Shown: positions 4,957-8,448 of the stretch, piece by piece
Position numbering within the stretch: position 1 is the first letter of the stretch
Layout of the letters: every line of letters begins with the position of its first letter
DNA from: an uncultured Candidatus Woesearchaeota archaeon
Lineage (GTDB): Archaea > Nanobdellota > Nanobdellia > UBA10117
Reading direction: 5' to 3'
Assembly: GCA_903864915.1 (NCBI GenBank)
Contig: CAIPHS010000004.1
Location: 3,705-67,704 of the forward strand
Length of the DNA: 64,000 bases
Notes under the pieces: generated by a model
Told to the model about the DNA's origin: nothing
Seen by the model: the letters and a program-made list of their open reading frames with translations, nothing else
The model's database searches: none
Program-made: the position numbers and the translations under genes

Positions 4957-5415
4957 TCATAAATTTAATTCATACCATAACATTTCAAGATTTGGTGCTA
5001 ATTTCTCTTTCCGCACAAATACAAAATTATGAGATTTAAAGAATTCATTATTATCCATAAATTCAAAAGCATCAGCGCGTATCTTATTTATATCTTTAAA
5101 TTTACACTCTTCAATGAACCTATTCAATAGTTTTTCTTCCATGTCATGTTTTTTAGCATTTACATAATGAATCATTGCCGTACTATGATTTTCTTCATAA
5201 CCAACAATAAATCCCACCACATTATTTTTACTAATGGCTACAAAAGCAATCAGTTTGGGGTTTTCAAATTCTTTTAATATGCCATGCTCTTCTGCATGAG
5301 TTCTAAACTTATCAATCATGTCTTTTGGAAATCTGGGATTCGGATATTCTAAATCCGCTAACATTAATACTGATATCTCCTTTGCATGGTTTCTATTTGC
5401 ATTTATTATCTTCAT
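4957..5415 (-). CDS. GNAT-fold protein, degenerate; last gene of putative RiPP operon
   Basis: GNAT-like pattern (FVAISKNNVVGFIVG, FFKSHNF) but no RxxGxG/A motif A loop; overlaps the upstream radical SAM stop. Confidence 0.6.
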   Translation of the reverse strand: MKIINANRNHAKEISVLMLADLEYPNPRFPKDMIDKFRTHAEEHGILKEFENPKLIAFVAISKNNVVGFIVGYEENHSTAMIHYVNAKKHDMEEKLLNRFIEECKFKDINKIRADAFEFMDNNEFFKSHNFVFVRKEKLAPNLEMLWYELNL

Positions 5416-6331
5416 AACTATACCTCAATTGCGAAGCAGTTACCTTGCTTAACTCGCTAGATCCAAACATCTTCGTATATTCCTTCCAAGCAGATTCCCA
5501 AGCCCAAGAACAGTTTTCACTAACCATACACTCGGAACAATAATCTGGTTGAGCCACATCTAAATTTCCGAACTTAATGGTTTCTGGAGATACATAAATC
5601 ATTTCATGAGTCATATGCTTCCAATTTTTGCCTAAATATGGCCAATAAACTGGATCTATCGTACACGAAGGAATTATAAAAATGCCTAAATTTTTATCTC
5701 GTTTAATTGCTTCATCTAACGCATCTTCGATATGCATCTTCATATCTTTGTATCGTACAACAATTTCCTCGCGGTTGTCGCTCGCATCACCGCGCATTAT
5801 TAGGCCGTGAATTGAAACCCAAGCAGACGGAAAGGTATCATATGCGAAACGAACAAAGTCTGATAATTGCTGGTAGTTTTGTTTTAATACAATCGTCTTA
5901 ACTGATATGGGCATGCCTATTTCCTCTAGATTCTTCAGACCAGAAACCGTTTCTAAAAAACTACCTTTTCGTTTAGTAATGGAATCATGTATTTCTTCAT
6001 GATGACTATAAAACGCAGTCATGACCCTATCGACTCCCACTTCCTTTATTTTTTTGGCGAAAGATTTATCGTTGAATTTCCGGCCGTTTGAAAGCATAAT
6101 AAGAGATGTGTTAAAATTAGCCTTTATGTATGTGCAGATGTCGAATAAATCTTCCCGCAGTGTCGGCTCACCACCACTAAGCTCAATATAATCTTCTTCG
6201 GATGGGTGTATTAACTCAAGTTTTTCAATAATTTGATCAATGGATAAACTTCCTTTCTCGTCGGATTTCCTCGCGCAAGAAATGCATTCATTATTGCAAA
6301 CATAATCCGCAACAATAACTATTTTCCTCAT
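5393..6331 (-). CDS. Radical SAM enzyme, HxsC-like peptide maturase
   Basis: CxxxCxxC (CNNECISC), SGGEPT, LSNG, C-terminal IPSC...CSECMVSENC; start placed at ATG 6331 (ATGA overlap with the upstream stop, GGGAG SD). Confidence 0.85.
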   Translation of the reverse strand: MRKIVIVADYVCNNECISCARKSDEKGSLSIDQIIEKLELIHPSEEDYIELSGGEPTLREDLFDICTYIKANFNTSLIMLSNGRKFNDKSFAKKIKEVGVDRVMTAFYSHHEEIHDSITKRKGSFLETVSGLKNLEEIGMPISVKTIVLKQNYQQLSDFVRFAYDTFPSAWVSIHGLIMRGDASDNREEIVVRYKDMKMHIEDALDEAIKRDKNLGIFIIPSCTIDPVYWPYLGKNWKHMTHEMIYVSPETIKFGNLDVAQPDYCSECMVSENCSWAWESAWKEYTKMFGSSELSKVTASQLRYSYEDNKCK

Positions 6332-7236
6332 TTCAAACTCCCAAAACGGGGCGAAAAGTATAAGCAAATAGATTTTTTTGTTATATGCTCAGAAAAAGTT
6401 AAGCCAATATTGCTATAGTCTATCTCTCCACAAGCATCTAAAGTTTTTACAGTTTCATCAAAATCATCAAATCTTTCAGGCACACAAGTCCGTACTAACT
6501 GCTTAACTTCCTCACAAGAAACTTTTCGGCAGGCATCAGCACTAGCATCAAAAAATACCGAAAAACCAGACGTAGGACTTAAATTTCTAGAGTATTTTTT
6601 AGAAAAAGTCACATCTCTTATTTCACCATCAGAAAATAGTTTCTGGAAATGTTCCAAATGTTGCGAAGCAACACCATTTCTTTTCAAATAATCACCTATT
6701 CTTGAAAAATTAACCGTTGTATCTTTGGTGTATACTTTTAGATTTTGTGCCTTGTCTTTATAAAAATCCACAGCCATTAGATAACAGCTTTCAATTTCTT
6801 TTCCATCGAGGCTTGTCAAATCGATATCGACGAGCTCAGATAAATGCTTTACACTTTCAACGGGATTTTCTTTGAATTTGGGGTTGTCAGGCAACCGTAA
6901 AAAATAAACTTTAATTCTTGGATTATTATTGTTAAAATCAAAGCCCAATGCGAATTCAGGAACACTGTCTTTCGCTAAAGATAAGATTCTTTTTAAATTA
7001 GAACACTCACAGTCCATTTTCTCAAGTACGGATAAGATTCTTTGGGTATCGTACAATTTAAATAAACCAAATCTTAAGTCAAATTTAGCGTCAGGGTTAA
7101 CTAAAAGCGAAAATTCTATTTTGCTTTGTAAATTTTCATAGTCAGTATATAGTGAATCATAAATATCCAAAAAATTAGCAAAATCAAATTGATGGAATCG
7201 CCCAAAGTACTCTTCCAAGCACTTAAGCGAATCCAT
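6328..7236 (-). CDS. Putative LynF/TruF/PatF-like (ABBA-fold) peptide prenyltransferase
   Basis: 302 aa; repeated beta-hairpin motifs IEFS...DLRF, LGFDF...RIKVYF, MAVDFY...LKVY and terminal ICLYF match the order of the E, R, K and Y active-site residues of F-family prenyltransferases (recognised by eye). Confidence 0.65.
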   Translation of the reverse strand: MDSLKCLEEYFGRFHQFDFANFLDIYDSLYTDYENLQSKIEFSLLVNPDAKFDLRFGLFKLYDTQRILSVLEKMDCECSNLKRILSLAKDSVPEFALGFDFNNNNPRIKVYFLRLPDNPKFKENPVESVKHLSELVDIDLTSLDGKEIESCYLMAVDFYKDKAQNLKVYTKDTTVNFSRIGDYLKRNGVASQHLEHFQKLFSDGEIRDVTFSKKYSRNLSPTSGFSVFFDASADACRKVSCEEVKQLVRTCVPERFDDFDETVKTLDACGEIDYSNIGLTFSEHITKKSICLYFSPRFGSLK

Positions 7237-7243
7237 TTTTAAA

Positions 7244-7420
7244 TTAATACCAGCTTCCAGGGTCCATGCCTATGTTGTATTTTTGCATAGTTCCTTTCGG
7301 ATTGTCCGAATTTAAAGGCACATATTTGTTTAGTTTTGGAGAATATATTTGTGGTGTGGTGCCATTCCCCCCAGTTATCGGACCACTGCTTTCTTTTTCA
7401 ACAACCGTTTCTAAGCTCAT
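7244..7420 (-). CDS. 58-aa putative RiPP precursor peptide (MSLET...GMDPGSWY)
   Basis: ATG at 7420 with GGAGGT SD 7 nt upstream; first gene of the operon; rich in G, S, T, P and N with C-terminal W-Y. Confidence 0.65.
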   Translation of the reverse strand: MSLETVVEKESSGPITGGNGTTPQIYSPKLNKYVPLNSDNPKGTMQKYNIGMDPGSWY

Positions 7421-7569
7421 TTTTTTACCTCCCGAGGTTTGCAGTATCTTAACCGCAAATATTAAGTATGTGATAGGCATAAATAATTTTTGGTAGTTAT
7501 TTAGCTGAGGATTTTCAAAAGTTAGGCCTTTTTTCTCATTTTTGTTGTATTATGCGACGCAATAAAACC

Positions 7570-8448
7570 TTACTTGTATTTTCTGTAAGTTCTAAAAGTT
7601 GGACCGGTACCTTTCACCCCACCAGTAGCGGGCCCCATGGGTTTGAAAAATGGTTCTGTTGCAGGTTCCAGAAACCAATGCCAGACAATAAACATCGCTA
7701 CAGCAGCAATCAACGCAAAAATTATGCTAGTAAATAATCCGAGGTAAAACATCGCCACGCTTACAACCAAGGTGAATATGAAAACGAAAACCCACAGCGC
7801 CCTGTTGCCAAAGAGCACATAGTCGCCTTCCATGTGCGGAGTTTCAAATGGCTCTCCCGGCTTTATCCTTTCGTGACCTTTTTGCAAGGCCAATATCGGG
7901 AGCAGCGTCAGCAGAGGGAGGAGATTGAAAAGTGCCATGTATATGTTGATTATCATCAGTTTTGCACCTATTGGCCCGATGAGTTTTGCAAAAAGTGCGA
8001 GGCCCAGGTTTGCCATCGGTCCGGCCAGACCTATCATTGCCTGCTCTCTTGGCCCAAGGTGCGGGAAAGGCTTGCCAGGCTTGAACAAGCGCCACGGTCT
8101 GATAAGAACTGCCCAAAGCGCAGCAAAGATAATCCATCCGTTTGAAAGGAACATTAAAACTAGCATGGCGATGATGCCGCTGAGCCAGAGTTTTGATTTT
8201 ACCACACCTAAAAATTTTGAAGCAACAACTTTGTGCGCGGCTTCATGTACCAAAACAGATATTGCAACCAGAATCAAAACCAGGAAAAAATTTCCAAACC
8301 AGCTGCCCAAGCTTACAGTCTTTATAAGCTGGCAGCTTTTTGCGAGCCCAAGGCAGGTCTGGTACGAAAACCCGAAAGCGAGTATTAAAATTACGGGAAT
8401 CAAGTCTTTTAGCTCGTTAAGCTCAAAGATATTCTTCCACGCGGCCAT
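7570..8448 (-). CDS. Site-2 protease family (M50) intramembrane metalloprotease
   Basis: HEAAH in a hydrophobic helix, GPMANL, FNLLP, several TM segments. Confidence 0.8.
   Translation of the reverse strand: MAAWKNIFELNELKDLIPVILILAFGFSYQTCLGLAKSCQLIKTVSLGSWFGNFFLVLILVAISVLVHEAAHKVVASKFLGVVKSKLWLSGIIAMLVLMFLSNGWIIFAALWAVLIRPWRLFKPGKPFPHLGPREQAMIGLAGPMANLGLALFAKLIGPIGAKLMIINIYMALFNLLPLLTLLPILALQKGHERIKPGEPFETPHMEGDYVLFGNRALWVFVFIFTLVVSVAMFYLGLFTSIIFALIAAVAMFIVWHWFLEPATEPFFKPMGPATGGVKGTGPTFRTYRKYK

Follow-up and report, generated by a model that had tools for sequence, protein, structure and literature searches.

A predicted RiPP-type cassette combining a prenyltransferase-fold protein, a radical SAM enzyme, and a GNAT-fold partner in DPANN archaea

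The 64,000-nucleotide stretch analyzed here (the window) belongs to contig CAIPHS010000004.1 of an uncultured Candidatus Woesearchaeota archaeon (GenBank assembly GCA_903864915.1). Read as open reading frames (ORFs), its minus strand carries a block of four tightly packed, co-oriented genes at positions 4957-7420. They encode a short peptide, a protein with the alpha-beta-beta-alpha (ABBA) prenyltransferase (PT) fold, a radical S-adenosylmethionine (SAM) enzyme, and a protein with the GNAT fold. We think it probable that this block is a horizontally acquired peptide-modification operon of the ribosomally synthesized and posttranslationally modified peptide (RiPP) type, specific to DPANN archaea of the Woesearchaeota/Nanoarchaeota type, and that its product is a lipidated, radical-SAM-modified peptide. 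Comparison of homologous loci shows a conserved predicted precursor that is genetically locked to the radical SAM/GNAT pair and usually also to the ABBA PT-fold protein. A preliminary description, made from the window sequence alone, had already read the block as a RiPP cluster. The structural model of the second protein and the conservation of the short ORF now support that reading, and the modification chemistry itself is what we infer. The tight packing noted in that description, with a 7-nucleotide (nt) gap and overlapping stop and start codons, and the strong GGAGGT Shine-Dalgarno sequence that it placed ahead of the 58-amino-acid (aa) ORF were both recovered on rereading the sequence. 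The five features of the block, in order of transcription, are as follows.

7427-7433, minus strand: putative Shine-Dalgarno-like GGGAGGT, 6 nt 5' of the ATG at 7420, read from the sequence
7244-7420, minus strand: predicted precursor peptide gene, 58 aa, conserved in 16 distinct loci
6328-7236, minus strand: predicted ABBA-barrel DMATS-like prenyltransferase, 302 aa, starting 7 nt after the peptide stop
5393-6331, minus strand: HxsC-like radical SAM enzyme, 312 aa, with its true start at ATG 6331 (MRKIVIV...) in an ATGA overlap with the preceding stop
4957-5415, minus strand: GNAT-fold protein, 152 aa, overlapping the radical SAM gene by 23 nt

A conserved short ORF accompanies the enzyme genes

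Homologs of the 302-aa protein fall into 27 protein clusters, and their contigs were recovered by look-ups and collection scans. Homologous peptides were pulled from these loci by script, and more variants were obtained through a search with the radical SAM enzyme. A short ORF ends just ahead of the 302-aa gene in every homologous locus with upstream DNA, and peptide alignment shows that it is conserved in 16 distinct loci. The preliminary description had made its reading depend on such an ORF being conserved, and it is. The order peptide-PT-radical SAM-GNAT is kept in every locus of the main gene-order comparison that reaches far enough, while the neighborhoods differ between loci and include ribosomal protein genes, FtsZ, toxin-antitoxin genes, and others. 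The proposed neighborhood search for the four-gene set returned the same order in unrelated surroundings. The 16 distinct precursors always adjoin the radical SAM/GNAT pair, an arrangement characteristic of RiPP clusters in general.

The peptide itself has no Pfam or NCBIfam match, and a word-indexed search with the 58-aa sequence matched only that sequence. The 16-peptide alignment resolves a leader motif (MSLTQIVEKE), a middle that varies in length and sequence, and a conserved tail of about 35 residues with the consensus [IV]YSxKLxKY[VI]PL…G[ED][IM]QxYN[VIL]GxxPG[SN]W[YW]-stop. The window peptide follows the same plan, with the leader motif MSLETVVEKE, a variable middle, and the tail IYSPKLNKYVPLNSDNPKGTMQKYNIGMDPGSWY-stop. 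Residues that never vary across the alignment are S, Q, N, P, G, and the penultimate W, and the final residue is always Y or W. A precursor of only 40 aa shows that the leader motif is dispensable. On codon comparison, the tail is under purifying selection: the last 34 codons have a median ratio of nonsynonymous to synonymous substitution rates (dN/dS) of 0.23, with a dS of about 1.5. The other two frames of the tail contain stops in most sequences. The length of 58 aa is counted from the second ATG. Homologs begin with MSLTQIVEKE, and nothing is conserved upstream of it. The conserved MSL start rules out a reading of the short gene as a 78-aa ORF and makes the 58-aa reading the correct one.

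The conservation of the peptide also bears on a second possible fate for it, in which the peptide is sacrificed to make a small molecule, as happens for pyrroloquinoline quinone (PQQ) or mycofactocin. Its C-terminal Trp and Tyr would be cross-linked or decarboxylated by the radical SAM enzyme, prenylated, and then excised by an unlinked protease, and the product would be a prenylated indole or phenol cofactor or signal. Such a scheme would account for the extreme conservation of the C-terminal residues and of the radical SAM enzyme (mean column identity, 80%), and the C-terminal aromatic residue recalls MftA (...GVY). The existence of a minimal 40-aa precursor and the absence of an exporter or immunity gene from the cassette loci read point the same way. 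However, the entire 35-residue region is conserved, beyond the last residues, and the conserved cassette genes include no peptidase, RiPP recognition element (RRE) protein, or oxidoreductase for downstream tailoring. Its patchy, accessory spread (2 of 401 genomes) is also unlike that of a cofactor for housekeeping enzymes. We consider the small-molecule scheme unlikely.

The 302-aa protein models as an ABBA prenyltransferase barrel

AlphaFold2 (AF2), supplied with a 27-sequence alignment, models the 302-aa protein with a predicted local distance difference test (pLDDT) score of 88.5 and a predicted template modeling (pTM) score of 0.89. The model contains exactly five alpha-beta-beta-alpha units and ten strands, a confident ABBA barrel where the preliminary description had allowed that none might be obtained. 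A Foldseek search of the PDB with this model returned 120 matches at an E value of ≤1e-3, and all 50 matches listed are ABBA prenyltransferases. The best of those listed are IptA, 5-/6-DMATS, PriB, and CymD (E values of 1e-10 to 1e-7; query TM-scores [TMq] of 0.62-0.72), and the top E value for bacterial DMATS-type indole prenyltransferases is 9e-11. The cyanobactin enzyme PagF matches with an E value of 6.5e-8 and a TMq of only 0.49. The earlier assignment to the F-family of ABBA prenyltransferases thus stands for the fold but not for the family, as bacterial DMATS-type structures are nearer.

Sequence models give fainter versions of the same signal, with scores below the cut-offs both for PF11991 Trp_DMAT (E value of 3e-4; 20.7 bits versus a cut-off of 25) and for TIGR03429 (E value of 1.4e-4; 21.2 bits versus a cut-off of 163.85). 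In the 27-sequence alignment, E41, R55, K109/Y111/R114, K167/Y169, K214, and Y293 are invariant, and Y215 is near-invariant, being kept in at least 90% of sequences. The invariant residues form basic/Tyr pairs on successive strands, and these basic and Tyr residues are largely kept in distant homologs. This is the pattern expected of a diphosphate-binding PT barrel, and the residues presumably map onto specific DMATS residues. The family is tiny, with 36 cluster representatives at an E value of ≤1e-3 among 1.84 billion proteins. The genome encodes a polyprenyl diphosphate synthase (C6:11022-11783), so the cell plausibly has some prenyl diphosphates at its disposal.

Free tryptophan or small indoles are the substrates of the proteins nearest in structure to the 302-aa protein, and no RRE domain is recognizable in the radical SAM enzyme. 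Both observations would suit a pathway in which the enzymes make a nonpeptide metabolite, such as a prenylated tryptophan derivative of the kind that ordinary DMATS enzymes produce, and the short ORF encodes a small accessory or regulatory protein. Against this, the short ORF accompanies the radical SAM/GNAT pair even where the PT is absent, and its conservation sits in an unstructured-looking, Gly/Pro-rich tail with terminal invariant aromatics, which is typical of a substrate. The length of 302 aa also lies 40 to 120 residues below those of the DMATS-type matches (342-425 aa) and near that of PagF (296-297 aa). We give the nonpeptide pathway only a very slim chance.

Distant relatives of the ABBA protein were also seen in other settings. 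On two short contigs, GC-rich (57-63%) homologs (L024:666-1577 and L025:383-1324; E values of about 1e-26) follow a larger, nonpeptide ORF in a different context with no visible radical SAM gene, and the L024 homolog precedes a TatA-like gene. This context is probably bacterial. A same-class genome contains a match to the central ABBA profile (G186:C1:322054-322479, locus L022; E value of 2.8e-5) inside a 584-aa frame, which may represent a larger protein with a PT-barrel-like domain.

The radical SAM enzyme is HxsC-like and appears to work with a GNAT-fold partner

The radical SAM assignment is clear from PF04055 (E value of 4e-19; 69.7 bits versus a cut-off of 29.5), and the family carries the superfamily motifs, an invariant C12-x3-C16-x2-C19 (CX3CX2C) and GGEPT. 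Four further Cys residues are invariant (C223 and C265-x2-C268-x5-C274) and would probably suffice for one auxiliary Fe-S cluster. They resemble part of the SPASM motif, and there is no PF13186 match. The best curated family is TIGR03977 HxsC (E value of 4e-45; 154 bits versus a cut-off of 267.9). The label "HxsC-like" given in the preliminary description therefore holds in that HxsC is the nearest curated family, but the score does not extend to equivalog status. Because the sequence opens directly with the cluster motif, the enzyme lacks an N-terminal RRE domain. Its gene is better conserved than any other in the cassette (62-75% identity across loci), and its subfamily comprises about 40 clusters at ≥56% identity, with the next relative at only 36%. 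All named members come from metagenome-assembled genomes (MAGs) of Woesearchaeota, Nanoarchaeota, or Nanobdellota. A relative at 30% identity, P0100, was set aside as part of a different, multi-radical-SAM locus.

The affinity to HxsC raises the possibility of an HXS-like defense or conflict module, in which the radical SAM enzyme would process a small effector directed at viruses or rival cells, just as HxsA is matured by HxsB/HxsC in bacteria. HXS is an experimentally shown antiphage system matured by radical SAM enzymes (PMC13128918). Several cassettes lie amid toxin-antitoxin, nucleotidyltransferase, or integrase genes, and their patchy distribution and apparent horizontal transfer would suit such a role. 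The HxsC score is nevertheless well under its cut-off, HxsA, HxsB, and HxsD are absent, and the peptide has no His-Xaa-Ser repeats. Among PADLOC defense models, only generic viperin-type radical SAM similarity was found. We consider an HXS-like module very unlikely.

The AF2 model of the 152-aa protein (pLDDT, 94) matches hundreds of GNAT structures in Foldseek, with PaiA (1tiq) at an E value of 1.6e-11 and a TMq of 0.82, and 8 of the 11 members of its family match PF13673. In natural fusions that make up three protein clusters (P0091, P0092, and P0095; 453-457 aa), a GNAT domain is joined to the C terminus of the radical SAM protein, and the fusion genes sit in otherwise normal cassettes with the peptide and the PT. 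The fusions are strong evidence that the radical SAM and GNAT proteins work together.

The prenyltransferase gene appears to be an optional addition to an older core

Two loci lack the PT gene. In L040, a peptide ending in ...GPGSWY is followed by the radical SAM gene and then the GNAT gene. In L030, a peptide ending in ...SGNWW is followed by the GNAT gene and then the radical SAM gene. Since the other three genes are retained in both, the comparison of loci indicates that the peptide, the radical SAM enzyme, and the GNAT partner form the minimal, older core and that the PT is an optional, add-on tailoring enzyme. L030 had suggested that the choice of terminal Tyr or Trp might track the presence of the PT, and this idea was rejected because L040 retains ...GPGSWY.

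ABBA-fold and HxsC-like proteins are also found paired outside the cassette. On a 27-kb contig (JGI 3300038466; L026:1900-4954), a distant 317-aa ABBA homolog, P0052 (E value of 1.8e-7), directly follows a full-length homolog of the window radical SAM enzyme (E value of 8e-30), with a 4-nt overlap. That locus is a seven-radical-SAM cluster, and a nearby 100-aa peptide has a His-Xaa-Ser-rich C terminus ending in HASHPSHTSHGSHGQW (...GQW).

The cassette was probably gained horizontally

A same-family genome, G312, retains the LonB-98-aa ORF-M50-hef synteny of the flanks and lacks the cassette, with its M50 gene ending 63 bp before hef. A second same-family genome, G301, also lacks the cassette. 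In the phylum, the ABBA gene is present in 2 of 401 sampled genomes, and the two carriers belong to different families. The GC content of the cassette is 34.4%, compared with 42.8% in the remainder of the window, which makes it the lowest-GC 2.5-kb stretch within the 64 kb, about 3 standard deviations under the mean. The AT richness remarked on from single-line counts is thus real. This offset is general, as the cassette lies 3 to 11 GC points under its flanks in all 11 homologous loci measured, in hosts with 33 to 63% GC. The most economical reading is that of an accessory cassette moving horizontally among DPANN archaea and gained at this site, although it may instead have been lost in the relatives.

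The window borders show no direct or inverted repeats above chance and no target-site duplication, and no tRNA gene lies within 14 kb of the cassette in the window. In another assembly (GCA_043825215.1; L041:5053-5991), a gene of the phage-integrase family is found some 500 bp downstream of a cassette with all four genes, whose ABBA gene appears shorter (about 267 aa). The DPANN host named in the preliminary description fits the assembly (651 kb in 13 contigs, 83% complete) and the named cassette-bearing relatives, which are MAGs of Woesearchaeota, Nanoarchaeota, and Nanobdellota. One complete cassette lies on a 3.8-kb contig (L007, CAZDQI010000046.1) binned as "uncultured Candidatus Saccharibacteria bacterium." Its bacterial label is probably a binning error, since all other named carriers are DPANN archaea.

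A proposed mechanism and the points against it

We propose that the radical SAM enzyme would work in complex with its GNAT-fold partner, which would present the peptide or supply an acyl group, either standing in for the missing RRE or donating the acyl group in the manner of Elp3. The complex would use radical chemistry to introduce a cross-link, a decarboxylation, or a C-alkylation or C-acylation, acting on or close to the invariant Trp in the penultimate position and the aromatic residue that ends the peptide. In a later tailoring step, an aromatic side chain, most likely that of the invariant Trp, would receive a prenyl group from the ABBA enzyme, with dimethylallyl diphosphate (DMAPP), geranyl diphosphate (GPP), or a longer diphosphate as the donor. 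The end product would be a lipidated, radical-SAM-modified peptide, which could serve as a signal, as an adhesion or membrane-insertion factor, or as an antagonist at the symbiont-host interface.

Several observations weigh against this proposal. The PT and HxsC matches both fall under the curated sequence cut-offs, and the 302-aa protein has no significant match to PDB sequences as a single sequence or as a profile (profile E value, 0.69). The catalytic assignment of the PT therefore rests on the fold and the residue pattern. The prenyl donor is a further difficulty, as HMG-CoA reductase and type-2 isopentenyl diphosphate (IPP) isomerase, which bear on the source of DMAPP, were not found in the 83%-complete genome. 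The donor may depend on host-derived precursors, though the assembly does not cover the full genome. The invariant Trp is also present in the PT-less variants, so its invariance is not attributable to prenylation alone. No conserved protease, exporter, or immunity gene was found in the loci read, and no C39 peptidase domain was found in the genome.

The last of these observations concerns the GNAT-fold protein, whose motif A is degenerate. No Gly is conserved in the family loop, and in the window protein the loop before the invariant LL reads K-K-H-D-M-E, compared with the usual Q/R-x-x-G-x-G/A. Canonical acetyl coenzyme A (acetyl-CoA) binding is doubtful because the motif A loop has no conserved glycine. 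The preliminary description's "GNAT-like" was therefore right about the fold and does not carry over to the canonical acetyl-CoA motif. Instead of being an acetyltransferase, the protein may act as a partner or adaptor, and acetyl-CoA binding by another mode is possible.

A bolder form of the proposal takes the analogy with Elp3 further. The radical SAM and GNAT proteins would form an Elp3-like two-domain machine acting on a peptide in place of tRNA, in which a carbon radical, generated either on a donor bound by the GNAT domain or on the peptide, would lead to a new C-C-linked modification on the invariant Trp near the C terminus. Lipidation by the optional DMATS-like enzyme would follow, yielding a ComX-like pheromone with a prenylated Trp, or a membrane anchor, with which these ultra-small archaea would signal or attach to their hosts. 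We regard this version as a long shot.

Flanking genes and genomic surroundings

The cassette is bordered in the window by two further features.

7421-7569, minus strand: intergenic region from the M50-like gene to the peptide gene, the upstream border of the inserted block, with A/T-rich, TATA-like stretches, read from the sequence only
7570-8448, minus strand: M50-like membrane protein, 292 aa, with a HEAAH motif and a weak M50 match (PF02163; E value of 0.013)

The hef gene on the other flank is identified by ERCC4 and helicase domains (E values of 7e-31 and 3e-26). The earlier placement of the block between hef and an M50 peptidase is borne out, with significant hef domains and, for M50, a weak match but a HEAAH motif in place. 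We rejected the M50-like gene as the protease of the cassette, as it is not beside the cassette in any other locus compared and adjoins hef in the cassette-free relative. Because it is syntenic with LonB and hef in that relative, the M50-like protein is a housekeeping neighbor. No informative promoter or terminator matches were found at the window locus with bacterial consensus patterns.

Elsewhere, cassettes on the 197-kb P0013 contig and at L040:2946-3518 lie among HicAB, PemK, HEPN, and Pol-beta nucleotidyltransferase genes. These surroundings look like a variable accessory region or defense island.

Novelty and significance

Full-text literature searches found no description of the cassette, in agreement with the impression recorded in the preliminary description that the enzyme combination matches no described class. 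The cassette is genuine, conserved, and apparently undescribed, and we class it with the RiPP type, with an unusual enzyme set. The accompanying statement that peptide pathways are not expected in DPANN archaea was too strong, as a genome-mining paper counts 221 predicted biosynthetic gene clusters in Nanoarchaeota (PMC12144867).

A 2026 review of peptide prenylation describes only F-family and trans-isoprenyl diphosphate synthase-like (ComQ/PalQ-type) enzymes (PMC13290415). If the cassette does encode a DMATS-like barrel that serves a ribosomal peptide, this would represent a third group of peptide prenyltransferases. Likewise, a radical SAM enzyme with an obligatory GNAT partner in place of an RRE would either handle its substrate in a new way or catalyze a new type of reaction. 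Should the Elp3-like version hold, the cassette would yield the first prenylated RiPP from archaea, made with the first DMATS-type enzyme that acts on a peptide. In host-dependent DPANN archaea with genomes of about 0.65 to 1.3 Mb, a mobile lipidated-peptide cassette is a testable candidate for symbiont-host signaling, attachment, or antagonism. At only 2.5 kb, and with a very small family, it is open to direct synthesis and testing.

Comparison with known systems

The bacterial DMATS-type enzymes (IptA, SCO7467 5-DMATS, 6-DMATS, PriB, and CymD) have the ten-strand barrel and an LK(I/V)Y strand motif in common with the window protein. However, the window protein is only 12 to 16% identical to them, lies under every curated cut-off, and is about 300 rather than 342 to 425 aa long. 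Its gene belongs to an archaeal peptide/radical SAM operon and not to an alkaloid pathway, and its presumed substrate is a ribosomal peptide rather than free Trp. The F-family enzymes of cyanobactin pathways (PagF, KgpF, and AcyF) are likewise small ABBA barrels of about 300 aa, and they modify aromatic residues of ribosomal peptides. In contrast, the cassette has no PatA/PatG proteases or PatE-type precursor in any locus read, and it is archaeal and linked to radical SAM chemistry.

Elp3 combines a radical SAM domain with a GNAT fold, as do the three natural fusions found here, and the analogy is one of architecture only. Elp3 uses its radical to take a hydrogen from acetyl-CoA bound in the GNAT domain. 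No Elp3 family is among the best 25 of 44 NCBIfam matches, the motif A glycines are absent from the GNAT-fold protein of the cassette, and the presumed substrate is a peptide and not tRNA.

The HXS system shares the best-matching radical SAM family, HxsC, which matures a ribosomal product (PMC13128918). It differs from the cassette, which has a single radical SAM gene and a GNAT-fold partner and has no HxsA, HxsB, HxsD, or HxS repeats. The ComX pheromone and PalX are made by ribosomes and carry a lipid on a Trp located at the C terminus or close to it (PMC10853753, PMC13290415). Their enzymes, the bacterial ComQ and PalQ, adopt the trans-isoprenyl diphosphate synthase fold and lack a radical SAM partner, whereas the cassette PT models as an ABBA barrel. 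Because the features that define the cyanobactin, HXS, mycofactocin/PQQ, and ComQ/PalQ systems are not those of the cassette, it stands outside all four.

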